DNA of 64,000 nt from Candidatus Omnitrophota bacterium (lineage in GTDB: Bacteria; Omnitrophota; Gorgyraeia; Gygaellales; Profunditerraquicolaceae): the NCBI GenBank assembly GCA_041662125.1, contig JBAZTA010000004.1, positions 128,343 through 192,342 on the forward strand, in the 5' to 3' direction. A program made the position numbers and the translations under genes. Shown piece after piece: positions 22,572 through 43,975 of the stretch (position 1 is the stretch's first letter; every line of letters begins with the position of its first letter). The notes beneath the pieces were generated by a model that did no database searches, was not told the DNA's origin, and saw nothing but the letters and a program-made list of their open reading frames with translations.

Positions 22572-22798
22572 TTCTTCTTCGTTCTCTTACAAGTAAAATT
22601 CCGGTGGAACTTCGAAGGAATGGATTAGGTTCTGCGAAGCCGCACCGGAGTTTTCTGTGCTCAACGGCGTAGCAGGCCGGTTGGGGCTATTCTTCTTCGC
22701 CCTCTTGCAAGTAAAGTTGTGGTAGGGCTTCGAAGGAATGTTAATGGGTCCTGCGAAGCCGCAGAGGAGTATTTCTTCTTGGATTCGTGGCGATTGAT
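22572..22798 (+). repeat. Tandem duplication (2 x ~115 nt) of a tRNA-linked element; the second unit begins with a re-duplicated tRNA-Glu 3' end (GGCCGGTTGGGGCTATTCTTCTTCG)
   Basis: Unit 1 is 22561-22686 (starts inside the tRNA) and unit 2 is 22676-22798. Core GGCTATTCTTCTTCGCCCTCTTGCAAGTAAAGTTGTGGTAGGGCTTCGAAGGAATG...CTGCGAAGCCGCA, with nested palindromes. Confidence 0.7.
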
Positions 22799-24226
22799 TT
22801 AAGAATTGGTGTCTTGTCTTCCAGTTGCCTGCTTGATACGTTCGGCGGGCAAAAACGGTTTATCTTGATTTGGCAGCACCTGGTTCAGAATAACATTCGC
22901 TATGTTTTCCGCCATTAGTATATTCCCTCTTGCTGTGCAATGTCCGAATTCTCCACCGAAATTATCGATAAAATAGGCTTCATAAGAAGCGTTGGCGACG
23001 GCATTCTTGAAGACTTCCTCGTTATCAATAAAATAAACGTTCTTTTGCGATTGCATCATTTTTTTAAGAGGCTCAATGCTTTTCATGGGATAATTCATAC
23101 ATATCAGTTTTACGCCTTTCGCTGCGGTTAGTTGAGCAATGCTTCGATAGTTGTTAAACAAGGATATTTTATAATAATTATCGCTTAGCCTCTCGGCCCG
23201 ACAATGATACCATTGCGCCATTTTAGGCTCACCCTGTTGTTGATAGCAGGCAACTAACTTAGTATACAATCTATCATTCAAGGGGTCACGTGAAATTCCT
23301 TCCTTTAAGATTGCCTCTGCCTGCGCAAACTTGCCCTGCTTCATATACATCGACCCTAGGCGAAAATATGGTCCAGCGGTCCAAACTGTCTTTCCCCTTA
23401 TTTGTATCGCCTTTTTAAACATCTTCTCAGCCATAGCAAAATCTTGCTGGGAATCTAAATAAAACTGTCCCAATCTTGAATAAGTTATATTCCCTAATAT
23501 GCCATCCACGCCAATGTCCCCGGCTTTCTTAAACATTTCTGTCGCCAAAGGAAATTTGTTCTCGGGGTACATCCTCAAATAAAGCAACCCTAACATCGCA
23601 AGCGACTTACTGTCCCCCGGGTTCTTTTCTATTGCCTCCTTGAATATTTTTTCTTGTTTCTTGAATTGCTCAGGATTTAAAAATGTATTTGTTCTCTCTA
23701 TGGATTTCTTTATCGCTGTTTCTCTGCCATCGCTGTCTGAATAGAGTCGCCTCTGGGTTGTCAATAGGCCCCAAAGTATCTTTACCAATTTGTATGTTTT
23801 TAGCGCAGTCGTTTCCTCCAGGGGGATATTGCCATAAGGGGCAAATTCACTTATATCGTTTATTCCCGTCATAACAATTACCATATCGGGTTTGTATCTA
23901 TCCAGGCATGCACGTAAAGCCGAAGCTATATACGTTGACGATGACAATACCTTCCCCTTGTCTATTACTTCAAATATTTCCCCTGCAGCTTTCTCATTTA
24001 ATATGTTTTGGAGTACTTTTGGGTATTGATTTGCAGTCATGGATTCTCCGAAACATAGAATTCTATGCGTTTTATTCTGGTTCAGAGATATTTTATTGTT
24101 TGTTTCCTGTATCAATGAAAATGTTAAGACGCTTATCCGTAGCGCCAGCTCAAGGATAGCTATGCTCAATAGTATGCCAAAAATAGTAAAAAGGAGTTTT
24201 GATGGTAAGGTTTTTGCTTTCTTCAT
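22799..24226 (-). CDS. Membrane-anchored SGNH/GDSL-like hydrolase family protein with TPR repeats (475 aa)
   Basis: N-terminal TM; block I ILCFGESMT (GDS-like), block III MVIVMTGINDI (GxND); central TPR-like helical repeats. Confidence 0.6.
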   Translation of the reverse strand: MKKAKTLPSKLLFTIFGILLSIAILELALRISVLTFSLIQETNNKISLNQNKTHRILCFGESMTANQYPKVLQNILNEKAAGEIFEVIDKGKVLSSSTYIASALRACLDRYKPDMVIVMTGINDISEFAPYGNIPLEETTALKTYKLVKILWGLLTTQRRLYSDSDGRETAIKKSIERTNTFLNPEQFKKQEKIFKEAIEKNPGDSKSLAMLGLLYLRMYPENKFPLATEMFKKAGDIGVDGILGNITYSRLGQFYLDSQQDFAMAEKMFKKAIQIRGKTVWTAGPYFRLGSMYMKQGKFAQAEAILKEGISRDPLNDRLYTKLVACYQQQGEPKMAQWYHCRAERLSDNYYKISLFNNYRSIAQLTAAKGVKLICMNYPMKSIEPLKKMMQSQKNVYFIDNEEVFKNAVANASYEAYFIDNFGGEFGHCTARGNILMAENIANVILNQVLPNQDKPFLPAERIKQATGRQDTNS

Positions 24227-24273
24227 TAAATATTCATGGCTTATTGTTGTTTATCAAAAAATATGCCTTAACG

Positions 24274-24504
24274 TTAAATTCCGGCGTAGATAAATGAAAG
24301 TATGACAGTAGGGCCTGCATAATAAGCCAGGAGCGCCAAAATCACTATCATGATGAGCAGGGGCGCGATAAAATAAAATCTATGCTCCTTGATTAAATAT
24401 GCGGCCTCCTTAAATAAATACACTATTTTTTTCATACGTCTTACTATATTTAGGATTCCTTTGATCTCGCATTGATATCGGGCCTGTGTTCCGGCAACAC
24501 GCAT
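24274..24504 (-). CDS. Small membrane protein (54-76 aa) downstream of hemL
   Basis: Single TM helix (FIAPLLIMIVILALLAYYAG). The start is ambiguous between 24504 and 24435 (MKKIVYLF...). Confidence 0.4.
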   Translation of the reverse strand: MRVAGTQARYQCEIKGILNIVRRMKKIVYLFKEAAYLIKEHRFYFIAPLLIMIVILALLAYYAGPTVILSFIYAGI

Positions 24505-24507
24505 TTC

Positions 24508-25806
24508 TTACAAAGTTCCATCATTCTCCTTAAAAACAGCTTTTTTATGTGCCGCCAGAGTTTTTTTGACATCATTATCCTGATGCGCAAAAGATACGAA
24601 ATTAGCTTCAAATTGCGAAGGAGCAAGATTAATTCCCTCTTTTAGCATATTCCAGAAATAACGTGCATATTTCTTGGTATCGGATGATTGAGCAGAGCTG
24701 AAATTATCCACCTTGTGTTTGGTGAAAAAGAGAGTAAACATTGATCCAGCGCGATTAAGTTTAAAATCCACTTTCTTTACCAGTAAAATATCTTCTAAGC
24801 CCCGGCATAGTTTTTCAGCGTTGCGGTTAAGCATAGTATAATCTAAACCGGAAAGCAGCTCAAGGGTTTCTAGTCCTGCGCTCACTGCTATGGGATTTCC
24901 AGATAGAGTGCCTGCCTGATATACGCGGCCCAAAGGTGAAACGCATTCCATAATTTCTCTTCTGCCTCCGTAAGCTCCGATAGGAAGGCCTCCGCCTATG
25001 ATTTTGCCCAAACAGGTCAAATCCGGCTCTATTCCGTAGAGTTTCTGAGCGCCGCCAAAAGTAAGGCGAAAACCGCTTACCACCTCATCAAAGATAAGAA
25101 TGATTTTATGTCTAGCAGTGAGTTCTCTCAGGTCTGATAAGAAATTGTTCTTAGGCAACACTATCCCCATATTCGCACAAACCGGTTCAACAATCACACA
25201 GGCTATTTCTTTGTGTTTGCGCTTAATTAACTCTCCAATGCCGTCGATATTATTAAAAGGCACAACTATCGTATCTTTACTGAGGCTACGCGTTACTCCT
25301 AAGCTGTCTGGAATGCCGAAAGTAGCGCAGCCAGAGCCGCTTTTTACTAAAAGGCTGTCAACGTGGCCGTGATAAGAACCCTCGAATTTGATAATCTTAT
25401 TTTTTCCGGTAAAACCTCGGGCCAGACGTATCGCGCTCATTGTTGCCTCTGTTCCCGAGTTTACGAGCCTCAACATTTCTATGGACGGTATTGTATTACA
25501 GATAACTCTGGCAAGCTTTGTTTCATTTTCTGTAGGTGCCCCGAAACCGGTTCCTGATCCCAAAGCCGCCCTTGCCGCGCTTATAACTTTGGGATGAAGG
25601 TGGCCTAAAATCAACGCCCCCCAACTCATAACATAATCGATGTAAGAGTTGCTATCTTCATCATAGACCCGGCAGCCCTGAGCTCTTTTTATGAAAAGAG
25701 GTGTTCCTCCTACTGCCATAAATGAACGCACGGGACTATTTACTCCGCCGACTAAATACTTTGACGCTTGCTTAAACAATACCGAAGACCTCGTAGTTTT
25801 CTTCAT
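24508..25806 (-). CDS. hemL: Glutamate-1-semialdehyde 2,1-aminomutase
   Basis: Class-III aminotransferase/GSA-AT sequence throughout (NSPVRSFMAVGGTPLFI, PLP-lysine region DEVVSGFRL...). Confidence 0.95.
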   Translation of the reverse strand: MKKTTRSSVLFKQASKYLVGGVNSPVRSFMAVGGTPLFIKRAQGCRVYDEDSNSYIDYVMSWGALILGHLHPKVISAARAALGSGTGFGAPTENETKLARVICNTIPSIEMLRLVNSGTEATMSAIRLARGFTGKNKIIKFEGSYHGHVDSLLVKSGSGCATFGIPDSLGVTRSLSKDTIVVPFNNIDGIGELIKRKHKEIACVIVEPVCANMGIVLPKNNFLSDLRELTARHKIILIFDEVVSGFRLTFGGAQKLYGIEPDLTCLGKIIGGGLPIGAYGGRREIMECVSPLGRVYQAGTLSGNPIAVSAGLETLELLSGLDYTMLNRNAEKLCRGLEDILLVKKVDFKLNRAGSMFTLFFTKHKVDNFSSAQSSDTKKYARYFWNMLKEGINLAPSQFEANFVSFAHQDNDVKKTLAAHKKAVFKENDGTL

Positions 25807-25807
25807 T

Positions 25808-26839
25808 TTACCTTCTTTTTAACGATACGGCAGCGACGCGCTGCATATACTGGTCGATCATCTGTTCGGCCTTTTTTGTTTCCTTCAGCCTTTTTTTCAT
25901 ATGCTCATCGCGCACTTTTGCCAGATCATCGATATTGTAAAGCCGCACATTCTTAATTTTGCCTGTATCAGGTTCGACATTACGCGGAACTCCCAAATCA
26001 ATAATACACAAGGGCCGGCCATGTTTTCTATCCATTATTCTTTTTATTTGTCTTTTCTTTAAGATGAAGCCTGATAAGCTAAGGCAGCTTATAATAATAT
26101 CCGCATCGATTACACTCTCAAGAAAATCTTCAAACTTGACCGCTTTGCCTTTGAGCAGGCAGGCTAACTCTCGGGCTTTCTGAAAGTCGCGGTTTGTTAC
26201 TGCAATGGATTGTATCCCTTGCGCATACAGGATCCTCGCCGTTAGTTCTCCAATTTTTCCCGCTCCCATTATTAGTACTCTTTTACCTTGCATGCTTCCT
26301 AGGGAATTTTTTATCAATTCCACTGTTACTGAACTTATAGAAACAGCGCCCCTGCCTATTTGAGTGCGACGGCGTATTATCCCGCCTGTTTTTATTGCTT
26401 CCGTAAAAATGTTTGACAGTTCTTTTCCCGCTGCCCCGTATTCATTGGCCTTAAGATACGCTTGCTTTACCTGTCCCAGGATTTGAGGTTCGCCTATAAT
26501 CATGGAATCTAAAGAAGCTGCTACCCGGAATAAGTGCCTGATTGCTTTTATGCCATTGAATTGATACGCATAGCGGATAAACTCATTTTGCTTGACTCCG
26601 TGAAAATCGCGGATAAACTTCTTTATTGAAGAGAAACCGGAAACGGTATCGCTTGCCACCGTATAAATCTCCACTCGGTTACAGGTAGATAAAATAAGGC
26701 TTTCCTTGATGGAATCATATTCCTTAAGCGACGATAGGGCTTCACGAATCCTTTCCGGGGAGAAACAAAGCCTTTCTCTTGTTCGTAAAGAAGCAGTCCT
26801 ATGATTTAACCCTACAATTTGCATGTTCATGTAATTCAC
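25808..26839 (-). CDS. hemA: Glutamyl-tRNA reductase
   Basis: Conserved active-site region LILSTCNRVEIY, an NAD(P)-binding GAGKIGE and a dimerisation C-terminus. Confidence 0.95.
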   Translation of the reverse strand: MNYMNMQIVGLNHRTASLRTRERLCFSPERIREALSSLKEYDSIKESLILSTCNRVEIYTVASDTVSGFSSIKKFIRDFHGVKQNEFIRYAYQFNGIKAIRHLFRVAASLDSMIIGEPQILGQVKQAYLKANEYGAAGKELSNIFTEAIKTGGIIRRRTQIGRGAVSISSVTVELIKNSLGSMQGKRVLIMGAGKIGELTARILYAQGIQSIAVTNRDFQKARELACLLKGKAVKFEDFLESVIDADIIISCLSLSGFILKKRQIKRIMDRKHGRPLCIIDLGVPRNVEPDTGKIKNVRLYNIDDLAKVRDEHMKKRLKETKKAEQMIDQYMQRVAAVSLKRR

Positions 26840-28150
26840 CTAATAATCCCATTCTCTGTATTTTTTCCTTAGTTGATAGCAAAAGGAAAACCAGTAAGTT
26901 AGGCTCACCAGCGTGTCTTTGAAGAAGAATTTAAAATAATTATCGCATTCTATTTTCTTTCTCCCGGAGAAATATACTGCGTAATAGTGTTTAAGCATTT
27001 CAGAAATGCCCGGCAACCGTCTAGTTTTTCTGGAACGTAACGCCCATCGTTTAAACGCCGCTTTCGGCAGAGAAAACAAATATAAAATAAATACAAAAAT
27101 GTCCTGCATAGGATAAACGAAGATAACATTCGTCTCGTCTACGGCTTCCGGCACTTCCACCGCGGTATTACGGAAAAGAGACAGCGATATCAACGGCCTG
27201 TTAACGCCCATTCTCATTTCTGTCCAGGTACCCCTGCCGATACGCACGTTTATTTCCATCAATTTGTGTGCGCCGCAGCGCGAGTCAATTTTGAACTGGG
27301 CATGAGCATACCCAAAGTAATTCTTATCTCGCAGAAGCGAAACAACTTTTTCATAACAGGGGGGGAACCCTGCCTTGGTATGCACTATCCCGCAGCTCTG
27401 ATGAATAATCAGTTGCGGCCTTCGGCATCCGGAACAGGAAGCAAATAATACGGTGCCGTCCCGTTTCATATAGACACGCAAGTTCACGATTGTATCCCCG
27501 GGGATGTATTCCTGCACCACGAACTTATGTAAATTACTCCTGTTGGCCTCCAGCCATCTTTTCCATCCGCTTTCCTCGTTAACGAAGAAAACGCCCCGGG
27601 AAGCGTTTCCGAACCGCGGTTTAATTATGGCGACAGGCTCAGTGCTGTTTTCTTCTCGCAAGGGCAGTTCTTTTATTTCGGATGCAAGGAAAGTCTTAGG
27701 ATGCGGGATACCTTTTGACTCTGCCAACCGTATTACCTCGAACTTATCCGCAACAGTTTTCAATATTTCGAATTCATTGATAGGAATAAAAACGCCTTTT
27801 TCGGCGAATGCCTTCTTGTGTTTAGATAGAAGGAAGACCTGGTCGTCATCAGTGGGGTAAATCAGATCTATACGCTCGCGCTCGCAGATGTCCATAATTT
27901 CATCTATATATTCTTTCTCCGGGCCAGCCTGGTAACTTTTGCCCAGGATCATTTCCAGGGCTCCGGAAGGCCTGGCGGATTTCAATTGGTAGGTTTTCGT
28001 AACCAACCTTGAATGCGCGGCAGGCGAAAAAAGCGAAGGCAACCTTCCCATCCGCGGGACAGTAATAATAATTTTTCCACAGAGATCATGCAGGGCTCGT
28101 ATAATGTCGTAGGACTGCGGAGTGTAAGGGTCGGTTATTAACAGTCTCAT
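26840..28150 (-). CDS. ATP-grasp domain protein (carboxylate-amine ligase-like)
   Basis: Pre-ATP-grasp plus ATP-grasp layout (VAIIKPRFGNASRGVFFV, QEYIPGD). Translationally coupled to the flippase (upstream) and hemA (downstream). Confidence 0.7.
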   Translation of the reverse strand: MRLLITDPYTPQSYDIIRALHDLCGKIIITVPRMGRLPSLFSPAAHSRLVTKTYQLKSARPSGALEMILGKSYQAGPEKEYIDEIMDICERERIDLIYPTDDDQVFLLSKHKKAFAEKGVFIPINEFEILKTVADKFEVIRLAESKGIPHPKTFLASEIKELPLREENSTEPVAIIKPRFGNASRGVFFVNEESGWKRWLEANRSNLHKFVVQEYIPGDTIVNLRVYMKRDGTVLFASCSGCRRPQLIIHQSCGIVHTKAGFPPCYEKVVSLLRDKNYFGYAHAQFKIDSRCGAHKLMEINVRIGRGTWTEMRMGVNRPLISLSLFRNTAVEVPEAVDETNVIFVYPMQDIFVFILYLFSLPKAAFKRWALRSRKTRRLPGISEMLKHYYAVYFSGRKKIECDNYFKFFFKDTLVSLTYWFSFCYQLRKKYREWDY

Positions 28151-29586
28151 GTATTCTGCGCGAGTTTATAGAAAACTTTCGCTTTCTCCCACATATTTAT
28201 ACCCATTATTTTTAACCCCAAGATATATATTACAGTTACGCTTACCATCTTTAATACTAAATATTCCATTTTCTCCGGAAATAACGTATTCAAGGATACA
28301 AGCAGTAATACCATTATTGTTGTGGCGGCAACAATTGGCATAATATTCTTAAGGTAAGTTTTTGGGGCAATTCCAATCAGCCCGCCGGTTTTCAATATTA
28401 TAATTGGGGAGCAAATGATTTCGCTGATAGTAACCGCTGCCGCAACTCCGACGATACCGTAACGCAACCCTAACAATATAAAGATACAATTCACGATACA
28501 ATAAGAAACCGCCCACTGAAAAGATATATCGGGCCTGCCTTTAGCATATACCACCGCCTTAGTTACGCCACGATAAAGAGACTTCAACAGCCCTCGTATA
28601 CAGAGTATTTGCAATAGCAATACGGTAGTAAGCCATTTTTCACCAAAAATAAGGTAAACAAACTCTTTAGCGTTAATACAGATCACAAGATATAACGGGA
28701 AACTCAACAAGGCCGCACTCTGCACAGTTTTTAAATAAATTTCTTTTAATAAATTATCTTCATTATGGATGCGGCTTAAAAAAGGGAAAAGTACTTTAAA
28801 AAATATCGGAGCAATATAATCGTTAAAATAATGGGTTATGGAAAAAGCAAGGAAGTAATATCCTAGGGAAAGGGCCCCCAAAAATTTGCCGATAACCAGA
28901 TAATCCAGGTTTTCATTGATATAATAAAATAGTCCGGTGCCAAAAGTATTTTTCCCGAACGAAACCATTTTTTTTAGTTCGTCGATTTTAAAAGAGAAAA
29001 ACGGCTTCCAATGGCAAAGACGCAAGCCCGCGAAACATCTTATCAGGCTCTTAAATAATAGTGCCCAAACCAGGCTCCAAACTCCGCAATTAAGAAATGC
29101 TAGTATTACGCCAACCAAGCCATATGCGATAATGCCTCCTAATTGCGGAATTGCCGCCCGTTTATATTCTAATTTTTTATTAATAAGTGCTTCAAAAATG
29201 TAGCTCAGCGAATCGATAAGAAAGATGGGAGAAAGAACTCGCAGGATAAGAGACAGCAAATGATTATGGAAAAAAGCGGCAACGAGCGGGGCAAGGATAA
29301 TGGTAATAACGCTGAGCAGTAGTCCCGCGGCAGCATATGTCAAAAAAGCGGTAGAGATGTCGTCTTCCCCTGTATCTAGCTGTACTATTGCCTCCGACAA
29401 TCCGAGGCTTTGATGAATGGTCTGCATGAGTTTTATATAGATATATGCTGTGGCGATAGTTCCAAAATTTTCCGGCAGCAATATTCTTGCCAGAATAATT
29501 GTAGATAATAACTGCAATGCGTGAGAAAATAATTCTCCCAATGTTATCCAGGTAAATCCTTGAACGATTTTCTGCCGTAATTTCAT
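28147..29586 (-). CDS. Polysaccharide/oligosaccharide flippase (Wzx-like, MOP superfamily)
   Basis: Twelve to fourteen predicted TM helices; ATGA overlap with the downstream gene. Confidence 0.8.
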   Translation of the reverse strand: MKLRQKIVQGFTWITLGELFSHALQLLSTIILARILLPENFGTIATAYIYIKLMQTIHQSLGLSEAIVQLDTGEDDISTAFLTYAAAGLLLSVITIILAPLVAAFFHNHLLSLILRVLSPIFLIDSLSYIFEALINKKLEYKRAAIPQLGGIIAYGLVGVILAFLNCGVWSLVWALLFKSLIRCFAGLRLCHWKPFFSFKIDELKKMVSFGKNTFGTGLFYYINENLDYLVIGKFLGALSLGYYFLAFSITHYFNDYIAPIFFKVLFPFLSRIHNEDNLLKEIYLKTVQSAALLSFPLYLVICINAKEFVYLIFGEKWLTTVLLLQILCIRGLLKSLYRGVTKAVVYAKGRPDISFQWAVSYCIVNCIFILLGLRYGIVGVAAAVTISEIICSPIIILKTGGLIGIAPKTYLKNIMPIVAATTIMVLLLVSLNTLFPEKMEYLVLKMVSVTVIYILGLKIMGINMWEKAKVFYKLAQNT

Positions 29587-29607
29587 AGGAATAGAGTAAT
29601 TATAGAT

Positions 29608-30576
29608 TTAACGTTTAAAAATGGCTGCAAGTATTCTTCCCGACACTCTTTCTCTTGTTCGAAGGTGGATGTCTAAAATGTTTTTTAAACCGAACCAAAA
29701 TAAACCAGCTATTATCCCGAGCCAGTAAAAAAAAGCTATTGAGGTTAGAAACACTAAAGCAACAATGCGTAGAGATATTCCAACATCTAACTGTCTTATG
29801 ATTTGTAACCCCCAAGTTTTTTCTTGGCCCGTGGAATTCTTGACAATGCTGTTTTTAATTAATGAATAGGCTTGTCCAGCACCCTGAAGAAATGACCCTT
29901 GCAGGTAAGATAAGGCTGTTTTGTCCTGGGGCATATGCGATACCGAAAGTTCAGAAATAAAATAAAGTTTCCCTCCATGCTTTATTATCCGGTCGTTTAA
30001 TTCTGTCTCGGAACTTCCATAAGAAAGCCGGTCATCGAAATAGCCATACTTCAGGAATACTTCTTTTCGATAACCGCTTGCTCCTCCCACAAGGGCAGCC
30101 GTTCGATTATCGCCGATCATATTCTGTCTAAGGTAAAAATTATCCAGCTCATTGCGACAGATAACAAAAATATTGTATTTTTTGGTCAAGATGTATCCTC
30201 CACCTAAAGCCATCGCTTCGATATGCAATTGAAAGGCCTTATAAGCTCTCATTAACCAATACTTGTCAGGCAATGCGCAGTCATCATCAAGAAAAAATAG
30301 TATTTCTCCCTTTGCAATCTTTATCCCGGCATTCCTTGTGGCGTTCGCTCCCGGAGAACCGTCCCGGGCAGAAATTACCCGGACCCTTTCTGAATACGTT
30401 TTCTGCCTGAGCCATTTCTCTGTGCGTGCGTCGCATTTATCCACGCTGACTATAATTTCGAACCCCCGTTGCTGTAACTCAATCTCTTGATTTAGGATTG
30501 AATCAAGACAGCATTTAAGCATCGCCGGCCTGTTGCAGGTAGGGATAATAATGGATATATATGGTTGACTGTTCAT
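29608..30576 (-). CDS. Glycosyltransferase family 2
   Basis: ISIIIPTCNRPAMLKCCLDSILNQ ... FFLDDDC (DxD); C-terminal TM. Confidence 0.85.
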   Translation of the reverse strand: MNSQPYISIIIPTCNRPAMLKCCLDSILNQEIELQQRGFEIIVSVDKCDARTEKWLRQKTYSERVRVISARDGSPGANATRNAGIKIAKGEILFFLDDDCALPDKYWLMRAYKAFQLHIEAMALGGGYILTKKYNIFVICRNELDNFYLRQNMIGDNRTAALVGGASGYRKEVFLKYGYFDDRLSYGSSETELNDRIIKHGGKLYFISELSVSHMPQDKTALSYLQGSFLQGAGQAYSLIKNSIVKNSTGQEKTWGLQIIRQLDVGISLRIVALVFLTSIAFFYWLGIIAGLFWFGLKNILDIHLRTRERVSGRILAAIFKR

Positions 30577-30582
30577 TCTACG

Positions 30583-31515
30583 CTACACAAAAATATCTGG
30601 CTTCATGCGTTTATTCGCTGCCAGGTATATTGTTTTATTCCTTAGCCATTCTCCTCTGATAATTAATGTGACATTTAAAATAAACTGTCGGGTATACTCC
30701 CATGATTGTAAACATCTAAAAAAGACCAATATGATCCGGGGAGAGAACAGGTTTAATATGGGCCGCTTAATAAGCAAAGTTCCCCAATTACCAAATACCC
30801 TGTGGCCGCCCTTGAGAAATCCCAATGCATAACGTTTTTGGCAGAAGTAAAAGTTTTCTCTGCGGAAATAATCTTTACCCCGATAATGCGTGATTCTTAT
30901 TTTGGGATTAAAAATAATAGTTTTTCCTGCTCTGATAATAGTATAATTAAATAGGCTGTCTTCAAACCCGATTTCTTTATAGTCTTCCGGGAATAAGTAA
31001 TTTACAACCTCGCATTTTTTATAAGCAATATTACAGGCGGGAATATTATTTACCCGTCGCGCCTTTCCCGCCGGGAACCACGAGGAAAATTCCAAGATAT
31101 ATGATGCCCAGGCAAGGCCCGAATCTGTTCCGTTAATAATGCTTCCGCCTACGGCAGTGGCGTCCGGATATCGTTTGAACGTCCGCGCTATTTCCTTTAG
31201 CCAGTTGTTGTCGGGGCAGCAATCGTCGTCTATAAATGCCAGATATTCTCCATTTGCCGACTGAATACCGGTATTTCTTGCCGCCGCTTGTCCAAGATTT
31301 ACACGCTGTCTTATATAATGCACTCGCGGACTAGAAGAACGCAGGTAACCTTCGCAAACGTATTCCGCGCCGTCCGTAGAGCAATCGTCAATAATAATAA
31401 TTTCGTAAATATTTTTCGGGTAATCCAAGCGTATAAGCGCGTCAAGACACCTGCTTAACAGCTCCTTGCGGTTAAAGGTGGGAATTACAATGCTTATCGT
31501 CGGCCAGTTTAACAT
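30583..31515 (-). CDS. Glycosyltransferase family 2
   Basis: ISIVIPTFNRKELLSRCLDAL ... AFIDDDC. Confidence 0.85.
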   Translation of the reverse strand: MLNWPTISIVIPTFNRKELLSRCLDALIRLDYPKNIYEIIIIDDCSTDGAEYVCEGYLRSSSPRVHYIRQRVNLGQAAARNTGIQSANGEYLAFIDDDCCPDNNWLKEIARTFKRYPDATAVGGSIINGTDSGLAWASYILEFSSWFPAGKARRVNNIPACNIAYKKCEVVNYLFPEDYKEIGFEDSLFNYTIIRAGKTIIFNPKIRITHYRGKDYFRRENFYFCQKRYALGFLKGGHRVFGNWGTLLIKRPILNLFSPRIILVFFRCLQSWEYTRQFILNVTLIIRGEWLRNKTIYLAANKRMKPDIFV

Positions 31516-31516
31516 A

Positions 31517-32929
31517 TTACATCATCTTTCTGATTTCTTTCTGTATCAGATGTTGCCTTAAGGAAGAAAGGACTGTCTGAATATGCATAATAAGAATACT
31601 TTTTAAAACCGATATAATGTCAGAAATGGATGAGGTTCTTAAACAGAAATTAAGCGTTAAGCGTATGAGCCTGCGCTGTACACGAAGCAGCCCTTTTCTT
31701 CCCTCCTTGCGATAAATATATTTCGGGGCAGGCCAAGGCGTAAGCCAGAAACCGTCATTAATAATCCCTTCCGCTTTGGCTTGTTCATAAATGTTTGTTC
31801 CTGGAAAAATAACTAATGTATATATTCTGATTTGATTGGGCCGCATATCATGAATTATCCCCATTGTATCATTAATATCATTTTTCGTCTCTTCCGGCCA
31901 ACCGATAATAATATTAATCCTCGTTTTTATCTCCAGTTTCTTTGAATAATTTACCGCCTTTTTTAATATCTCCAGAGACGGATTACGTCCGGCATTTTTC
32001 AGGATATTCAGCGAGCCGGATTCCATGCCGAATGTAATTCCTCTTAAACCGGCCATCTTCAGTTTCTTTAAAATACCGTAATTTACATATTCCGCTCTTG
32101 TTTGGAAAGCAAAACTCATCTTCAAGTCTTCCTTGAGTATCTTTTCACAAAACTCATCTGCCAGGGCAGGATCAGAACCAAAGGCAGCGTCGCTGAAATA
32201 GATGGCCCGGGCATTAAACCTGTATTTTAAATACTTTAATTCTTCAATTATATTATCCACTCTTCGGCTGCGGGTTCGGTACCCATGAAAATTAGCTCCG
32301 CTGCAGTAGGAACATTTAAAAACGCATCCCCGCGAAGCCATTACAGAAAAATAGTTTGCTTTCCTTAGAAGCGTAATCGGGATATCATCATAGCAGGGGA
32401 AAGGGAGCGAATCAAGGTCTTGGATTATTTCTCCCGGAACGCCTTCCAGAACTTTTCCGCGGGAATCCCTGCAAACAAGTCCGGGTATTTTATTTGTTGC
32501 CTCGCCGCACTTTAGTGTTTCAAGAAGTTTCAGCAATGTTAGCTCGCCCTCGCCCCTCACGATATAATCAATAAAGGGGTAATTTTCCATTAACTGCCGG
32601 TACATAAAGGTAGGGTGATATCCGCCCAAGATTACTTTTATCAGGGGATTGTATTGTTTTATTAAGGATGTGATTGCTAAAGCCTGAATCCTGTCCGCAG
32701 TCAGACTGCTGATGCCTACAATGTCTGGCTTTAAGTCGGAGAGGGCCGAAAATACCTCTTTTTTATCAAAAGCTGAAAACCGCCTTAAAAAAGTACGCGG
32801 ATAGCCGTTTTGTTTAAGATATGCCTGCAGATACATTAAACCCAACGGAACAGGGTAACTGCTTTTTCTATACCAAGCATGCTTGCTGAAATCAAAGGGA
32901 TCAACCAGTAAAACTTTTAAATCGCTCAT
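31517..32929 (-). CDS. B12-binding domain radical SAM protein (class B rSAM)
   Basis: N-terminal cobalamin-binding Rossmann region (KVLLVDP..., GGYHPT) and radical-SAM CxxxCxxC (RGCVFKCSYCSG). Start chosen at MSDLKVLLVDP (32929); the ORF-track start at 33013 would overlap the upstream GT2. Confidence 0.85.
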   Translation of the reverse strand: MSDLKVLLVDPFDFSKHAWYRKSSYPVPLGLMYLQAYLKQNGYPRTFLRRFSAFDKKEVFSALSDLKPDIVGISSLTADRIQALAITSLIKQYNPLIKVILGGYHPTFMYRQLMENYPFIDYIVRGEGELTLLKLLETLKCGEATNKIPGLVCRDSRGKVLEGVPGEIIQDLDSLPFPCYDDIPITLLRKANYFSVMASRGCVFKCSYCSGANFHGYRTRSRRVDNIIEELKYLKYRFNARAIYFSDAAFGSDPALADEFCEKILKEDLKMSFAFQTRAEYVNYGILKKLKMAGLRGITFGMESGSLNILKNAGRNPSLEILKKAVNYSKKLEIKTRINIIIGWPEETKNDINDTMGIIHDMRPNQIRIYTLVIFPGTNIYEQAKAEGIINDGFWLTPWPAPKYIYRKEGRKGLLRVQRRLIRLTLNFCLRTSSISDIISVLKSILIMHIQTVLSSLRQHLIQKEIRKMM

Positions 32930-32981
32930 AATAAGCGTTTGCCTATAATTTTGGTTTTCATGTAATTTTCGTTCATCCTGC

Positions 32982-34007
32982 CTAGGCACCTTTTTGCGCA
33001 AGGATAGAAACATTCCTTGTCCAGCCGAACAGCGGTTTGATAAGCTCTATAACGAATCCTGCTCCATACATCAGGTGGATTGTTGGGAATAATATAAGGG
33101 ATATGGGTAATAATCTTATTTTTCTTTCTAACCATGTATATTTTAAAGAATTATATGCGCAAGGCAGCAGATATATGAAAAGAGTGACCTGTAAATATAG
33201 CGGACGGTATAGGAGAAGGGAGAGTAGATAAATAAGGAAAATGGCCGGCATAAAGTAGATAATGCTATAGGCGCCTGGATAATTCCGTATTGTTTGGTAT
33301 CTCCCCGCTCCGTAAGTAAAAATCTGGCGACAAAATTCGATATAACTTTTTCTGCGTTCATGATAGATAATTAAATCCGGAATATACATAGCTCTGTGGC
33401 CTTTAGCCATCAATTTTCTCAGTAGCAGATTCTCTTCACCGGCAATAACCGAACTATCAAATAAATTGTCTCCATGTTTAAAAATGCTTCTACGGAAAAT
33501 AAGGTTGCAAAGAATCAGCGTTCGCTCATCAGCGGATACTGCCTTGGGGAACTTGTAATAACGCCTGCTCATCCATAATGTAGCAAAGAAAGAACCCAAA
33601 ACGTACCCTTGAGCGGTTTTAAACAGATTACTTCCAGGTGGAGTCAGATTTGGGCCGCCTAAGATATCGACCTGAGGATACCTGTCAATGTTTTCCAAGG
33701 CTACGGACAATGTATCTAAGGGTAGTATTATGTCATCATCCAGGAAATAGACGAACTCGGACTGTGACTCTTGCAAGAGGGTATTTCGAGCCTGCCCGCG
33801 CCCAAGCCTTGCCGATTTTATAAAGTTGATATTATTATATTTTGTGTGGTAGAACTCGAGGATCTTTTCAGTACTATGACTGGCGTCATTCGCCAAAATT
33901 AACGCCTGTACGTCTGCAAAATACCTGCAGGAAACCAGGTTTTTTAAATAACTCTCCAGGGTTTCTTCTCTCCCACAGGTTACGGTTAGAATGGTCAGCT
34001 TATTCAT
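32982..34007 (-). CDS. Glycosyltransferase family 2 with C-terminal TM anchor
   Basis: LTILTVTCGREETLESYL ... FLDDDI. ATG at 34007 forms an ATGA overlap with the upstream rSAM stop. Confidence 0.85.
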   Translation of the reverse strand: MNKLTILTVTCGREETLESYLKNLVSCRYFADVQALILANDASHSTEKILEFYHTKYNNINFIKSARLGRGQARNTLLQESQSEFVYFLDDDIILPLDTLSVALENIDRYPQVDILGGPNLTPPGSNLFKTAQGYVLGSFFATLWMSRRYYKFPKAVSADERTLILCNLIFRRSIFKHGDNLFDSSVIAGEENLLLRKLMAKGHRAMYIPDLIIYHERRKSYIEFCRQIFTYGAGRYQTIRNYPGAYSIIYFMPAIFLIYLLSLLLYRPLYLQVTLFIYLLPCAYNSLKYTWLERKIRLLPISLILFPTIHLMYGAGFVIELIKPLFGWTRNVSILAQKGA

Positions 34008-35542
34008 AACGCACAAGAATCCCTATTTTGGGTGAGCAGGCGTTTAGCCGCAACTGAATGTTGCTGGAAAGCGCCATAAAAATACTGGTCTCTTTCAAAA
34101 CGTTCTTTGTGACGGCTAAAGATTCCGATAAATTTAATACCGCACATAAGCAGGACGCATTGGACCAGCCAGGATTTAAAAAAAAGGAAGGAAACATTGT
34201 ATTCATGGTAATTGAGGCCAAAAACTTTCTTTTCCTGCACTTTGGCGGTCCCGTAATATGACTTATAGTCGTGGTTTTCAGTTAGGCGGTCTATTCTTGA
34301 AAGGAGAAAGCGGGCCGCTCCCGCGCTTTTGAAAAGATTCCGATGTTTCGCTATAAAAGACAATAATTTTATTATATCTCTTGGGGTTTCGCCGGGATGG
34401 CCGATCATAAACATTAAATGATTCCATATCCCTGCTTTGTGGGATGCGTGTAAGGCATGTAAAGTTGAATCAAGCTCGACCTGTTTATTCATTTTACGCA
34501 GCCCTGCTTCGCTTAAAGTTTCAATGCCCCAGCGTAATTGGATGCACCCGGCTTCTTTTAGCAGTTGAAAGTAATCTGGGGGAGCGTCTTCCGGTATAAA
34601 ATAAGCGGACCAAAAAATGCCGAGTTTGCGGCGTATGAACTCTTCGCAAAGCTGGATGGAGAATTTTCTGTCAATATTGATTGCGTTATCCACAAATAAG
34701 AAGCAAGAGGTTTTATGTCGTATTTTGAAGCGTTCAATTTCGTCAGCGATAATTTTAGGTTCCTTGAAATATAACGGTTTTCTGCCGGTAATACAGAAAG
34801 AACAGTTGTTCCTGCATCCCTTGCTGGTTTCATACGGTAGTATTATATTGCTTTCCCTGCGGTAAAGATGAAAAGGCAAATCTTTGAAATCAGGCTCCAT
34901 ACTATCCGCATAATGAGTGGCCGGTGGGTTAATATTTATGCAGTCTCCCGTTCTATATAAAAGGTTTTCTATATTTTGCAACGGTTCACCGCCAATAAGC
35001 TTATCCAAGGGTATTTCCCCCTCGCCTGCGATTATGTAATCAATAAAAGGGTAACGCTTTAGAAGTGAATCCATCCGGAGCGTTAAGAAATTACCTCCTA
35101 GGAGGGTGAACAATCCGTATTTTTCTTTAAGGTATTTGGCAAAACAGAGGCTGGTAGCCAGCTGGCTTTCGCTCATTACGGAAAAGCCTACATGCGTAAA
35201 AGTGGAAGGAGGTTCTACTGTTAACTCTTCCCACTCAGAGAGGATTTTCTGCATACGGCTTTTCAGTATATTAGACTCAAGGTAAGCGCTTACGAGTGGA
35301 GTATCGAGAAATATGCTTTTGGGGTTATTGTAGCGTAGGGGCAATCTCTTTACCAACGGCCTTAGAATCGCCATTGCGGGTTTGTTTCTATCCCAGTATT
35401 TTATTTCAATATCATCAATTCGTATTTCCTTGCCCGCGCGCCTTAGATATCCGGCAAGCACCGTGATTCCCAGAGGGGGAAAAGGTAACATCTTCTGATT
35501 AGCGGTAGGAAGGTATAAAACAAGAATGCGGTTAGCTGCCAT
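34004..35542 (-). CDS. B12-binding domain radical SAM protein (class B rSAM), second copy
   Basis: N-terminal B12-binding region (RILVLYLP...) and CxxxCxxC (KGCRNNCSFCITG). Confidence 0.85.
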   Translation of the reverse strand: MAANRILVLYLPTANQKMLPFPPLGITVLAGYLRRAGKEIRIDDIEIKYWDRNKPAMAILRPLVKRLPLRYNNPKSIFLDTPLVSAYLESNILKSRMQKILSEWEELTVEPPSTFTHVGFSVMSESQLATSLCFAKYLKEKYGLFTLLGGNFLTLRMDSLLKRYPFIDYIIAGEGEIPLDKLIGGEPLQNIENLLYRTGDCININPPATHYADSMEPDFKDLPFHLYRRESNIILPYETSKGCRNNCSFCITGRKPLYFKEPKIIADEIERFKIRHKTSCFLFVDNAINIDRKFSIQLCEEFIRRKLGIFWSAYFIPEDAPPDYFQLLKEAGCIQLRWGIETLSEAGLRKMNKQVELDSTLHALHASHKAGIWNHLMFMIGHPGETPRDIIKLLSFIAKHRNLFKSAGAARFLLSRIDRLTENHDYKSYYGTAKVQEKKVFGLNYHEYNVSFLFFKSWLVQCVLLMCGIKFIGIFSRHKERFERDQYFYGAFQQHSVAAKRLLTQNRDSCAL

Positions 35543-36956
35543 TTTGTATCTTTACAAGCCCACAAACGCTGTCGTTTGTCGCATGTACTTTAAAAAACTT
35601 TCTAAAAAAAGCGAGAATATCAATAAGCTCGACGCTTTTTCCGTCCGGGGACGCCAAATAATAGGGTCGATACAACGTATACATATTATCCGAACGCATT
35701 TTATTATCTGTGGTATCGAGAAAACTTATCTTTTTCTTTTGCGATATATCTTTTTGAATTATCCAGGGTTCTCTGTGCTTTTTATATGAGCCTATTGCCC
35801 GGGTAAAAATCCGTCTGGCGCTTTGCCTCGAGAGGTTTTTAAGCCGATAGACTCTTTGGCCCCCCCAATTTACTTGTAGGTCTAGGCCGGCATATTTTAC
35901 GATAAATTCGCGCTGACGGCGCGGCATGTCGATAATATTATCAATGCTATACTGTGCCCCGTCGAATTCATAGGTCGAATTGTCTTCAATAATATATGAT
36001 TCAGGGAATATCGTTCGCTCCTCTTGCGTAAAATATTCTCTATACTGCGCGTGCCAGAGAAGGGCCATTATGACTTTTTGTTCAAAAAAAATATTTGGTG
36101 CAGGTTCTATGTCAACGGTGCCATTTTTATACCTTTGTATGATTTCAAACCAACTGTTGTAGATAATTTTCTGAAGAAAGGGGGTCCACTTAAATGATAT
36201 TTTGCAAGCGCTGCCCCGATGCCAGAACATTCTTCTGGGGGATATAAGCAGCAGGGTAAAGGAGGAAAGGTCCTGGAGATTCTGCGGCTTGCGATTATGT
36301 ATAATTCCCGGGGAAAAGTATCTTCTGATTTTTATTAATGAATTACCAAAAAGTTCTTTCAACAGATAGTCTATTTCAGGCGCGCAAGTGTAGCCTTTCT
36401 CATCAACACATACAGCCGCCGGTTTCGGCAGCATCCTGTTTTTAAAACAAGACAAATGATTATGCAGGTTTTCAAAAGAGAACGTGCTGCAAGGGGGATG
36501 TGTCTTTTCCATTGTTTTCCTGAAGGCCCACAAATACCCTAATCCCCGTAACCCCGCATGGAATTCGCTGAATTGAACTGAGTCCGGGGAATCTCCCCGG
36601 AAGATAATTGGCAAACAGCGTCTTCCGGAGCAAATTAATTCCCGGTGAAAATCGCGGATTTCCGGGATACGTAAAATCCCGGTTTCCAAAAGTTCGGTAA
36701 GCTGGTTACTTCCTTTAGAAACCGCGCGGCTATAGAGCGTATTTACTTTATTGAGTATATTATAAAGCAGAAATCCTGAACGCGTAATTTTATCGACTGT
36801 TTCTTTTTTTAACGGGTGATACCCCGCTAAGAGGTTCATCCCTATGCGCCGCGGGTCCTTATATCCCAGGTTTAATTTATTTAACTCATCCTTTGGTAAT
36901 TTGATGCCAGCTACGTCGGTTTCGCTTACCATCGTTTGTTGTACGCAGTTTTCCAT
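35532..36956 (-). CDS. Hypothetical protein (474 aa) conserved within the glycan cluster; no recognised motif
   Basis: Long ORF translationally coupled to the downstream rSAM gene; Cys-rich central part. Confidence 0.55.
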   Translation of the reverse strand: MENCVQQTMVSETDVAGIKLPKDELNKLNLGYKDPRRIGMNLLAGYHPLKKETVDKITRSGFLLYNILNKVNTLYSRAVSKGSNQLTELLETGILRIPEIRDFHRELICSGRRCLPIIFRGDSPDSVQFSEFHAGLRGLGYLWAFRKTMEKTHPPCSTFSFENLHNHLSCFKNRMLPKPAAVCVDEKGYTCAPEIDYLLKELFGNSLIKIRRYFSPGIIHNRKPQNLQDLSSFTLLLISPRRMFWHRGSACKISFKWTPFLQKIIYNSWFEIIQRYKNGTVDIEPAPNIFFEQKVIMALLWHAQYREYFTQEERTIFPESYIIEDNSTYEFDGAQYSIDNIIDMPRRQREFIVKYAGLDLQVNWGGQRVYRLKNLSRQSARRIFTRAIGSYKKHREPWIIQKDISQKKKISFLDTTDNKMRSDNMYTLYRPYYLASPDGKSVELIDILAFFRKFFKVHATNDSVCGLVKIQNGS

Positions 36957-36990
36957 AATAGAATGTTTATATAAGGCAAGGAGCGTCTTT

Positions 36991-37986
36991 TTATTTTAAT
37001 TCCGAAGCTATTTCTTTTGCATGGTAGGTGATAATAATATCAGCGCCTGCGCGTTTAATAGCGAGCAAAATCTCCCGCACAATCTTTTTCTCATCTATCC
37101 AGCCCAACTTTCCTGCAGCTTTAACCATAGAATATTCTCCGCTCACGTTATAGGCGGCCAAGGGGAATTTAAATTCCTGTTTTATCCTGCTTATTATGTC
37201 TAAGCAGGCAAGCGCCGGTTTAACCATCACGATATCCGCGCCTTCCCGGATATCCAGCGCTACTTCTCTTAACGCCTCGTCAGAGTTTCCGCTGTCCATC
37301 TGATATGAACTTCTGTCGTCAAATTTGGGAGATGATTTTGCCGCCTGGCGGAAGGGAGAGTAGAAAGCGGACGCGTATTTTGCGCTGTAGGCCATAATGG
37401 GTATATTTGTATAATTGGAGCCATCCAGGGCCTTGCGTATTGCGCTTACCTGGCCGTCCATCATTCCGGAAGGAGCAACCATATCGGCTCCTGCTTCTGC
37501 GTGAGAAAGAGAGATCTTCGTCAAAAGGCCCAGGGTTATATCGTTATCAACACTGTGCGAAGGGAAAGCGCTTCTTCCATAATTCTTAACTACTCCGCAG
37601 TGCCCATGGCTCGTATGTTCGCAAAGACAAACATTTGTAATGACCAGTATATCAGAAATCTTTTCTTTCAGGGTAGCTACAGCTCTTTGCATAATCCCTT
37701 CTTTGGCATAAGCTTGGCGCGCCGAGTCATCCTTTTTGGCGGGCACATCAAAAAGCAGAACCGCCGGAATACCTAATTCCTTAGCTTCTTTTACTTCCTT
37801 AACAAGGTTATCTACTGACAACTGTGACTGCCCGGGCATCGAAGGAATGGGGTTTCTTGTATTTTTCCCTTCTGTAACAAAGAAGGGCATGATCAGATTA
37901 TTCACGCTCAAGGTGTTCTCGCGTATCAAGCGCCGAAAATTATTATTCTGTCTTAACCTTCGTGGTCTATAAATAGGGTAATGCAT
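36991..37986 (-). CDS. hemB: Porphobilinogen synthase (delta-aminolevulinic acid dehydratase)
   Basis: HYPIYRPRRLR N-terminus, active-site Lys region IVMVKPA and Cys-rich metal site (CLCEHTSHGHCG). Confidence 0.95.
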   Translation of the reverse strand: MHYPIYRPRRLRQNNNFRRLIRENTLSVNNLIMPFFVTEGKNTRNPIPSMPGQSQLSVDNLVKEVKEAKELGIPAVLLFDVPAKKDDSARQAYAKEGIMQRAVATLKEKISDILVITNVCLCEHTSHGHCGVVKNYGRSAFPSHSVDNDITLGLLTKISLSHAEAGADMVAPSGMMDGQVSAIRKALDGSNYTNIPIMAYSAKYASAFYSPFRQAAKSSPKFDDRSSYQMDSGNSDEALREVALDIREGADIVMVKPALACLDIISRIKQEFKFPLAAYNVSGEYSMVKAAGKLGWIDEKKIVREILLAIKRAGADIIITYHAKEIASELK

Positions 37987-38231
37987 TTTTCACTTTTTTA
38001 TTTTAGGTATTTCGTATTGAAAGATTATTCGTGGCTTAACTGGGGGCTCTTCAACGCCATATAATCAGCCAAAGCGCAAAATACAACCACGTCTTTCCCG
38101 GATAATTTTAGCCAAGATTAATTTAAAGTATATACCAATCACTTTGAGATGGGAAGGGAAATCTTATTGCAAGAAAACCGTATTTGTAATTACCTTGACA
38201 CCGTTGCCGTGCGTAAAGTAAAATATAGTTT

Positions 38232-43930: not shown

Positions 43931-43975
43931 AATGGCAGTAGTCTTAATTTGAGAAGGGGGCCTTTTCAATAGGAT

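Follow-up and report, generated by a model that had tools for sequence, protein, structure and literature searches.

C-methylation is the commonest chemistry of class-B radical S-adenosylmethionine (rSAM) enzymes. Among the systems closest to the locus reported here are the moenomycins, in which the AsnB-like enzyme MoeH5 decorates the carboxyl group of galacturonic acid with either amino acids or a C5N unit (PMC8778134). Clusters for secondary metabolites can contain a dedicated gene for 5-aminolevulinic acid (ALA) synthase (PMC4525017), and heme and cobalamin pathways occur in Omnitrophota without being universal there (PMC10066038). A literature search returned no account of hem genes inside a glycan operon, nor of glycan clusters with B12-type rSAM enzymes in Omnitrophota. 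Here we describe a 64-kb stretch of a Candidatus Omnitrophota metagenome-assembled genome (MAG), called the window throughout, in which hemB and the pair hemA-hemL lie among glycan genes that are accompanied by two rSAM genes.

Our analysis favors, at a probability of roughly 60%, relocated housekeeping hem genes that are co-transcribed with a glycan operon through an accident of history. A lineage-specific rearrangement, which would be tolerated or at most give co-expression, is the best reading of the adjacency. We take it as no evidence that tetrapyrrole synthesis and the glycan pathway depend on each other. Under this proposal a hem/ahb cluster, dedicated to siroheme-dependent heme synthesis, would have broken up in this lineage, and two of its fragments would now reside inside the glycan operon.

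Gene organization of the locus

In the list of open reading frames (ORFs), the minus strand carries an unbroken run of 13 genes from position 37986 down to 22799. Their order is hemB, a 474-aa ligase, rSAM1, GT2a, rSAM2, GT2b, GT2c, Wzx, ATP-grasp, hemA, hemL, a DUF5989-like gene and SGNH-TPR, and the junctions range from a 32-nt overlap (-32) to a 47-nt gap (+47). Gene calls from L001, a Logan assembly with a stretch identical to the window, were used beside the longest ORFs. An earlier sequence-only reading of this DNA had proposed that hemB and hemA-hemL share a strand with hardly any space between genes, which holds across all 13 genes. Every gene it named was found where it had been placed, on the minus strand, and profile searches back the identities.

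No terminator is predicted between genes of the run; every terminator-like match on the minus strand falls inside a gene, and their number (21 versus 18.4 in shuffled sequences) is at shuffle level. The combined promoter and terminator scan is uninformative, with matches near shuffle expectation and no known promoter consensus for Omnitrophota, and a promoter-like site at 38195-38224 comes from this same near-expectation scan. The 13 genes are an operon-like co-directional run whose arrangement is well above chance, and hemB through SGNH-TPR very probably form one transcript, to judge from the sequence.

The glycan genes were previously described as lying between the hem genes. A cassette is indeed found there, but further glycan genes (PMT_2, AsnB-like and GDSL) lie upstream of hemB. 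The locus is better described as a glycan region of ~20 kb (~22.8-42.9 kb of the window) that holds two hem fragments, one consisting of hemB alone and the other of hemA-hemL.

The hem genes of the window

The first gene of the run, hemB (36991-37986, minus strand), encodes a porphobilinogen synthase of 331 aa (PF00490 (ALAD), 477.7 bits; NF006762, 487.6 versus a cutoff of 297). The hemA gene (25808-26839, minus strand) encodes a short form of glutamyl-tRNA reductase that scores 357.4 against TIGR01035 (cutoff 209.55), covering profile positions 3-328 of 416. Next to it, hemL (24508-25806, minus strand) encodes a glutamate-1-semialdehyde 2,1-aminomutase of 432 aa (TIGR00713, 608.1 versus 527.3). 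All three proteins therefore exceed the curated equivalog cutoff of their own family. The HemB sequence has the Cys-rich motif CLCEHTSHGHCG, which we take to be the zinc site, and the lysine motifs MVKPA and SAKYAS, presumably holding the active-site lysines; HemA has the motif STCNR, which we assume to contain the catalytic cysteine.

A direct fusion of the ATP-grasp gene to hemA, reported previously, does not hold up. The zero gap arises because the longest ORF was taken as the gene. The likely hemA start is the ATG at 26830, which is preceded by an AGGTGA that overlaps the ATP-grasp stop codon and which leaves a gap of ~9 nt; the homologue alignment of window HemA begins at residue 4.

Window HemA is 340-343 aa long and has no C-terminal dimerization domain. 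Judged by its relatives this is a clade trait and not a truncation, because nearly all of the 40-odd closest HemA proteins are equally short (335-390 aa) and without PF00745. Those closest relatives that carry a source name are from Omnitrophota, most close matches being unnamed. More distant homologues, from Nitrospirota, Acidobacteriota and others, measure ~420 aa and carry PF00745. A scan of genome contigs with HemA returned two real HemA loci, both from Nitrospirota and neither with hemL or hemB within 10 kb, and none from Omnitrophota. By these comparisons hemB and hemA-hemL appear to be ordinary, intact C5-pathway genes of Omnitrophota ancestry.

We also considered a horizontally acquired island that splits a hem operon. 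The hem genes and the cassette are alike in GC content and in GC at third codon positions (GC3), and the codon and GC comparison gives no signal of a recent foreign insertion in the nine cassette genes. The island is unsupported because there is no such compositional discontinuity.

A reshuffled remnant of the hem/ahb cluster

In other Omnitrophota loci the hem/ahb genes occur in the order sirC, ccsA, hemA, hemC, cobA/hemD, rSAM, hemB, rSAM-SPASM, ahbA/B, hemL, where sirC was called by NAD_binding_7, ccsA as ccsA-like, and ahbA/B-like genes by NirDL. The cluster is complete in L014 (GCA_043812035.1) and the same in L013, except that ahbA/B is called there as one gene. Locus L015 has no hemB, ahbA/B or hemL in the 10 kb of flank, and L019 covers only a 3.5-kb fragment. 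In all four, hemA is immediately preceded by sirC and ccsA and immediately followed by hemC, and no glycan genes are found near any of these clusters. Among contigs of sufficient length for neighbors to be seen, L019 carries the protein closest to window HemA (54% identity), and the three long-contig relatives in L013, L014 and L015 are 46-53% identical to it.

The window proteins HemA, HemB and HemL are orthologue-like with respect to these clusters, at 46-67% identity. Both HemL and HemB of the window are 64-67% identical to their counterparts in L013 and L014, or more precisely 65-67% for HemL and 64-67% for HemB. When all eleven proteins of the L014 cluster were compared with the 64-kb window by tblastn, the matches were hemA, hemB and hemL only; sirC, ccsA, hemC, cobA/hemD, ahbA/B and the two rSAM genes (ahbC/D-like) have no match there. 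In the window, hemA is preceded by the ATP-grasp gene and followed by hemL, and the order is hemB ... hemA, hemL, versus hemA ... hemB ... hemL in the hem/ahb cluster.

These results are at odds with the proposal that a heme operon had been split by an insertion. Seven of ten hem/ahb cluster genes are absent from the window and the order differs, and therefore the locus is not a simple insertion but a reshuffled remnant. On gene content and order, the window arrangement is such a remnant, holding only the three steps to porphobilinogen.

Recurrence of the glycan genes in related genomes

Homologues of the ATP-grasp protein in Omnitrophota, at 45-60% identity, sit in glycan clusters. A block of GT2, GT2, Wzx and ATP-grasp genes with PMT_2 recurs in four Omnitrophota loci, namely L016, L017, L018 and a JGI contig (3300075153). 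In L016 and L018 the block reads GT2a, DegT, GT2b, Wzx, ATP-grasp, with the last two directly adjacent, and in L017 and the JGI contig two genes separate Wzx from ATP-grasp. Orthology of cassette genes across loci was set by tblastn. Wzx homologues in L016, L017 and L018 are 51-59% identical to that of the window and lie each time in the same cluster, upstream of ATP-grasp. GT2a homologues (47%) and GT2b homologues (53-54%) are present in L016 and L018, GT2c homologues (40-44%) in L011, L016 and L017, and PMT_2 genes also in L016 and L017. Each of the four loci carries three to six rSAM genes, of SPASM, Fer4_12 and B12-domain types, which is unusually dense for surface-glycan clusters.

Three of these four related loci, L017, L018 and the JGI contig, contain no hem genes. 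The same is true of the clusters outside the window that pair the 474-aa ligase with rSAM1 (L002 and L003/L011, described below). The sequence-only reading had named glycan genes standing apart from hem genes in relatives as the observation that would count against it, and this is largely what we see: L002, L003/L011, L017, L018 and the JGI contig are hem-free, with L016 as the exception.

At positions 13178-14165 of L016 (GCA_018813905.1, JAHJAO010000069.1), the homologous glycan cluster contains a hemB homologue that is missing from the gene calls, located between an rSAM1 homologue of 57% identity and the GT2c homologue. It has one frameshift, in a G5A4 run (GGGGGAAAA) near 13308, and no other stop in an otherwise intact frame of 331 codons; it may be a pseudogene, or the frameshift an assembly error. 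The HemB proteins of the window and L016 are 72% identical and those of L013 and L014 71%, with 64-67% across the pairs. Such identities fit two sister lineages, one of which would have hemB in the glycan locus. The hemB-glycan linkage would therefore predate the split between the window and L016 lineages, and it would have outlasted local change in gene order.

Several points weigh against an accidental relocation. The three hem genes that are present make up exactly the set for ALA and porphobilinogen. A hemB of 72% identity is found inside the L016 glycan cluster as well, beside an rSAM1 homologue, and a linkage that survives such divergence and reshuffling would not be strongly predicted by a purely neutral juxtaposition; we regard this as the main evidence against accident. 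In addition, hem copy number and the later tetrapyrrole steps are known for the 64-kb window only, not for the whole MAG. So far, the recurrence of hemB in L016 is explained by nothing beyond shared ancestry.

Radical SAM enzymes and cofactor supply

Of the two rSAM proteins, rSAM2 (31517-33013, minus strand; 498 aa as the longest ORF, 470 aa as called in L001) has the B12-binding-domain architecture of class B, scoring 75.6 against PF02310 (cutoff 32.1) and 71.8 against PF04055. The other, rSAM1 (34004-35542, minus strand; 512 aa), matches PF04055 at 72.1 bits and has a weak, B12-binding-like N-terminal domain whose PF02310 score of 29.7 is below the cutoff of 32.1. Both contain the CxxxCxxC motif, beginning at C243 in rSAM1 and C230 in rSAM2. 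Two B12-binding rSAM enzymes had been proposed for this locus: the cysteine motif is there in both, and the B12 domain stands for rSAM2, but that of rSAM1 falls short of the Pfam threshold. Likewise, the proposed glycan cassette with class-B rSAM enzymes inside the hem run is found as a co-directional, glycan-type cassette, but its cobalamin-domain component is clear for rSAM2 only. We thus predict a true B12-domain architecture for rSAM2 and a degenerate one for rSAM1.

Neither protein reaches the NCBIfam cutoff of a curated class-B subfamily (BchE, HpnJ, HpnR, PhpK, ApyD, BzaD, KedN5 and TsrM-type). The best NCBIfam match of rSAM1 is TIGR04072, at 108 versus a cutoff of 360, and all subfamilies are far below cutoff; for rSAM2 the best matches are ApyD (185.5 versus 750), BchE and HpnJ, again all sub-cutoff. 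In sequence searches against the PDB, rSAM1 is closest to AprD4 (E 1.9e-6) and rSAM2 to TokK and OxsB. We take AprD4 to be cobalamin-independent despite its B12-like domain. Since the closest solved relatives include OxsB and AprD4, reactions other than C-methylation are possible for the window enzymes, by analogy. Homologues of rSAM1 at 45-57% identity are present in L002, L003/L011 and L016, and an rSAM2 homologue of 38% identity in L018.

The B12 domain raises the possibility that the early hem genes are kept in the operon for cofactor supply, raising the flux toward cobalamin when B12-dependent glycan rSAM enzymes are expressed. The 75.6-bit domain of rSAM2 agrees with this idea, as do the further B12-domain rSAM proteins in the related Omnitrophota glycan loci L016 and L018, the second occurrence of hemB in L016, and gene spacing in the run that is tight enough to suggest translational coupling. 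The heme and cobalamin pathways that it presupposes do occur in Omnitrophota, if not universally (PMC10066038). However, the inventory of hem and cob genes, which covers the 64 kb of the window, contains no cob/cbi genes, cobA, hemC/hemD or B12 transporter. Rfam models run over the window find three tRNAs and a c-di-GMP-I riboswitch only, and no cobalamin riboswitch.

About twenty steps separate ALA and porphobilinogen from cobalamin, and co-regulating only the first three steps would, from general knowledge of the pathway, be a weak lever on it. Moreover, three of the four related glycan loci with B12-domain or other rSAM genes have no hem gene, the B12 domain of rSAM1 is sub-threshold, and the L016 hemB is frameshifted. 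On this balance we consider cofactor supply unlikely and retain the accidental relocation of the hem genes as the preferred account.

Glycan genes and their product

Three family-2 glycosyltransferases are encoded in the run, all on the minus strand: GT2a (32982-34016; 344 aa as the longest ORF, 341 aa in the L001 call; PF00535, 58.5 bits), GT2b (30583-31515; 310 aa; 127.4 bits) and GT2c (29608-30576; 322 aa; 79.7 bits). They are followed by a Wzx/MOP-family flippase of 479 aa (28147-29586, minus strand), which matches PF13440 at 236.4 bits and NF007773 at 260.2, just under the cutoff of 273. The start of the next gene, for a PylC-like ATP-grasp ligase of 436 aa (26840-28150, minus strand; PF21360, 33.9 bits; PF02655, 25.4 bits), overlaps the Wzx stop by 4 nt. 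A Wzx flippase together with three PF00535 proteins is what is expected of a Wzx-dependent glycan cluster.

Two more genes follow hemL in the run. The first (24274-24504, minus strand) encodes a DUF5989-like small membrane protein of 76 aa in the L001 call, or 53 aa from an internal ATG at 24435, whose PF19451 score of 22.6 is below the cutoff of 27. The second and last gene of the run (22799-24226, minus strand) encodes an SGNH/GDSL-like protein of 475 aa that matches several TPR families and, weakly and at its N terminus, DUF459, Lipase_GDSL and NonGDSL.

Upstream of hemB and divergent from it is the gene for a PMT_2 glycosyltransferase of the GT-C, ArnT/PMT-like kind (38232-39884, plus strand; PF13231, 49.4 bits). 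Beyond it lie genes for an AsnB-like amidotransferase of 571 aa (39862-41577, minus strand; PF13537, 50.7 bits; PF00733, 34.3 bits) and a GDSL/SGNH esterase-like protein of 369 aa (41837-42946, minus strand; PF13472, 45.9 bits). The AsnB-like ORF begins with MNYIYG and has no Cys at position 2, which may mean an inactive glutaminase domain or a wrongly assigned start codon. GC content is markedly low at 1000-8000 and 38000-44000 (0.32-0.38 versus ~0.42-0.45 elsewhere), and these segments take in the PMT_2, AsnB-like and GDSL genes along with several ORFs without a family match.

The functions that we propose for the cassette come from family membership alone. The locus would be a cell-surface glycan region, ~20 kb in length, of a divergent Candidatus Omnitrophota MAG. 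The three GT2 transferases would build a lipid-linked oligosaccharide, which rSAM1 and rSAM2 would tailor by radical chemistry. Up to three carboxylate-activating enzymes, the PylC-like ATP-grasp protein, the glutathione-synthetase-like ligase described below and the AsnB-like protein, might add amide-linked groups. Wzx would flip the product, the PMT_2 GT-C enzyme would probably transfer or extend it outside the membrane, and the SGNH proteins would add or remove acyl groups. Among the ORFs from 18.6 to 47 kb there is no Pfam family of an initiating phosphoglycosyltransferase or of Wzy, and therefore the product may be a short oligosaccharide, not a polymer. The related locus L003 does have a Wzy_C gene.

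The missing initiating phosphoglycosyltransferase and Wzy polymerase would also be compatible with a cassette that makes a modified lipid, a glycosylated ribosomally synthesized and post-translationally modified peptide (RiPP) or a similar compound, with the GT2 and Wzx proteins acting on a non-glycan scaffold. In NCBIfam, rSAM1 and rSAM2 come closest, though below threshold, to enzymes of lipids and RiPPs (a ladderane-lipid rSAM, ApyD, HpnJ and BchE). In L017, genes for YcaO, PqqD and an ScmC-type rSAM stand next to the ATP-grasp gene, and small ORFs accompany rSAM-SPASM genes in L002 and on the P0004 contig. We judge such a product quite improbable, however, as three GT2 proteins, a MOP flippase, a GT-C enzyme and SGNH proteins are the classic signature of lipid-linked glycan assembly. 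The related loci add genes for a DegT aminotransferase, GT9, Wzy_C, CapK_C and Alginate_exp, and no precursor-peptide gene is evident in the run.

A ligase fold for the 474-residue protein

The second gene of the run (35532-36956, minus strand) encodes a protein of 474 aa that the sequence-only reading had left as an unknown and that has no Pfam, NCBIfam or PDB sequence match. An AlphaFold2 (AF2) model built from an alignment of 62 sequences (predicted local distance difference test (pLDDT) 90.4; predicted TM-score (pTM) 0.92) has the fold of a glutathione-synthetase-like, circularly permuted ATP-grasp ligase, and we predict a carboxylate-amine ligase. The 62-sequence alignment was required; a model from 5 sequences reached a pLDDT of 54 and was discarded. 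The top 33 matches in a Foldseek search of the PDB are eukaryotic-type glutathione (GSH) and homoglutathione (hGSH) synthetases, GSS-like effectors, the Cp1B ligase (9cjn) and 3n6x, with E values down to 3e-11, a probability of 1.0 and TM scores of 0.58-0.63, and the next matches have E > 0.1. The 3n6x entry is annotated as a 'putative glutathionylspermidine synthase', and Cp1B belongs to the E-64 pathway (PMC12568646).

The family of this protein is bacterial and, by word-based and exhaustive profile searches, rare: 5 clusters are close, and a search of 1.84e9 proteins yields 210 representatives (E up to 1e-3). In Pfam searches at E up to 10, five family members match nothing, and ten distant members match only through fused domains. 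Across the 62 sequences, R120, K294, K354, W398 and Q401 are invariant and D122, E131, G365 and K456 nearly so, a pattern that would fit an active ATP-grasp ligase. The conserved Lys, Arg and Glu residues and the Gly-rich loop may sit like the ATP- and substrate-binding residues of glutathione synthetase.

An rSAM1 homologue, 45-50% identical, adjoins the ligase or shares its cluster in every locus whose context can be read: the window, L002 (= L010, L012) and L003 (= L011). The L002 and L003 clusters carry Wzx, GT2, Wzy_C, CapK_C, AsnB-like, Alginate_exp and further rSAM genes, and AsnB-like genes accompany ligase homologues in L002 and on the P0004 contig. The pairing is one-way, in that L016 has an rSAM1 homologue without the ligase. 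A scan of metagenome contigs with the family alignment gave three loci, all of them duplicates of known contexts. Some distant family members occur as C-terminal fusions, to a radical-SAM-like domain in P0176 (859 aa) and to an HMGL-like domain in P0241 (812 aa). We considered P0176 as Rosetta-stone evidence for the ligase-rSAM1 pairing and set it aside; its rSAM part is not rSAM1-like, and it offers soft support only.

With this assignment the locus holds three enzymes of the carboxylate-amine-ligase type, and one conceivable role for the hem genes would be building-block supply. In one version, hemA-hemL, possibly with hemB, would provide ALA or a product derived from it, which one of the two ATP-grasp ligases or the AsnB-like enzyme would link through an amide to the carboxylate of a glycan sugar. 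In another, ALA or porphobilinogen itself would be the building block, joined by the PylC-like ligase next to hemA or the glutathione-synthetase-like ligase next to hemB, and the recurrence of hemB in L016 would then be functional. The ATP-grasp gene ends 9 nt before hemA, the glutathione-synthetase-like ligase comes directly after hemB, and the locus has the genes for ALA and porphobilinogen but none for later tetrapyrrole steps. Moenomycin provides a precedent for an ALA-derived unit, or amino acids, in amide linkage to a uronic acid (PMC8778134, PMC4525017). If such supply were true, the product would be a surface glycan with an ALA- or pyrrole-derived substituent.

The hem genes nonetheless look like ordinary orthologues that pass equivalog cutoffs and whose closest named relatives are from Omnitrophota. 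A cyclizing ALA synthase, an acyl-CoA ligase and an amide synthetase of the moenomycin type are all absent from the annotated ORFs, ALA would be consumed by hemB, and most of the homologous ATP-grasp and ligase clusters are hem-free. We hold the ALA-delivery version to be highly doubtful and the direct use of ALA or porphobilinogen to be equally far-fetched; hem genes brought into the glycan operon by rearrangement remain our preferred explanation.

Boundaries of the run and other features of the window

A tRNA-Glu(CTC) gene found by ARAGORN and Rfam (22497-22571, plus strand) marks the downstream boundary of the run, on the opposite strand. Glu-tRNA(Glu) is the substrate of hemA-hemL, which lie ~2 kb from this gene, but the proximity is probably a coincidence. 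Directly downstream of the tRNA gene and just past the end of the run is a tandem duplication (22559-22622 and 22677-22740; 118-nt spacing, 86% identity), each copy of which opens with the final 13 nt of tRNA-Glu(CTC) (CCGGTTGGGGCTA). An integration event could have left this duplication behind as an att-like remnant. Some 4 kb separate the end of the glycan/hem run from an IS200-like Y1 transposase gene (18106-18597, plus strand), which adjoins a module of a FIST protein, a histidine kinase and a response regulator with a GGDEF domain.

The gltX gene that had been pointed out at the start of the window is present, as a partial gene cut by the window edge (21-1064, plus strand), but it has no tie to the run. 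We rejected it as part of the hem/glycan arrangement because it lies on the opposite strand at a distance of 23 kb, beyond peptidase, signaling and transposase genes that are unrelated to the run.

On the far side of the glycan region is a Tad-pilus locus with RcpC at 47925, a secretin at 48818, an ATPase at 50473 and TadB/C-like genes at 61952-63687. The secretin (48818-50458) carries a C-terminal TonB_C domain, and the T2SSE ATPase (50473-52635; 720 aa) has a ParA/MinD-like (TadZ-like) domain fused at its N terminus. Within this locus a tandem array of about ten small ORFs (55025-57796) encodes proteins whose hydrophobic N termini resemble Flp/TadE-type pilins by eye (e.g. ...AQTTAEYAILIALVIGAVVAMQIYVKRG). 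Directly upstream of the array is the c-di-GMP-I riboswitch (54849-54986), which scores 37.3 bits against a gathering score of 35.

Implications

Should the adjacency be no more than historical, the window would offer a clear example of an Omnitrophota hem/ahb cluster fragmenting and being absorbed into another operon. Omnitrophota apparently own a recurrent Wzx-dependent glycan locus that is unusually rich in rSAM genes, and the radical tailoring of surface glycans has barely been explored outside antibiotic pathways. A previously unannotated family, with ~210 representative clusters, gains a ligase fold and a consistent genomic partner in the rSAM1-type enzyme, and the two together make a concrete pair for enzymologists. 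Were the hem genes to serve the glycan after all, through a cofactor or a building block, they would tie tetrapyrrole precursors to the chemistry of the cell surface in a new way.

Comparison with known systems

The whole chain of the 474-aa protein shares its fold with glutathione synthetases of human, yeast and plants and with the circularly permuted ATP-grasp ligases Cp1B and 3n6x. Unlike these, its family is bacterial, comprises ~210 representative clusters and has no detectable sequence similarity to any Pfam family or PDB chain. With the cobalamin-dependent rSAM enzymes (TokK, OxsB, BchE, HpnJ/HpnR, PhpK and GenK-type), rSAM2 has in common an N-terminal B12 domain followed by a CxxxCxxC rSAM core. 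Both window proteins, however, are far under every curated cutoff for such enzymes, and rSAM1 departs further, with a sub-threshold B12 domain and AprD4 as its best PDB match.

The moenomycin tailoring system also brings together glycosyltransferases, an AsnB-like amidotransferase, amide-forming ligases and ALA-forming genes in a glycan-type cluster, which we assume to include the radical SAM methyltransferase MoeK5. The routes differ, as ALA in the window would come from the C5 genes hemA and hemL, whereas moenomycin uses a cyclizing Shemin-type ALA synthase; the window also has hemB, and it has no homologues of the acyl-CoA ligase or amide synthetase. By analogy, the resemblance is a lead only.

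Wzx-dependent surface glycan clusters, such as those for O-antigen, capsule and general glycosylation, resemble the locus in their several GT2 genes, MOP/Wzx flippase, GT-C PMT_2 enzyme and SGNH/GDSL proteins, in their amidotransferase and ATP-grasp tailoring genes and in their tight, co-directional operons. The window locus differs in that the searches turned up neither an initiating phosphoglycosyltransferase nor Wzy nor a chain-length regulator. It adds two rSAM genes of B12-domain architecture (sub-threshold in rSAM1), the glutathione-synthetase-like ligase and three tetrapyrrole-precursor genes.

The Omnitrophota hem/ahb cluster differs from the window in its neighbors, which are genes for cytochrome-c assembly and ahb genes and not glycan genes, and seven of its ten genes are absent here. 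What the two share are orthologue-like hemA, hemB and hemL genes and a short HemA that dispenses with the dimerization domain.

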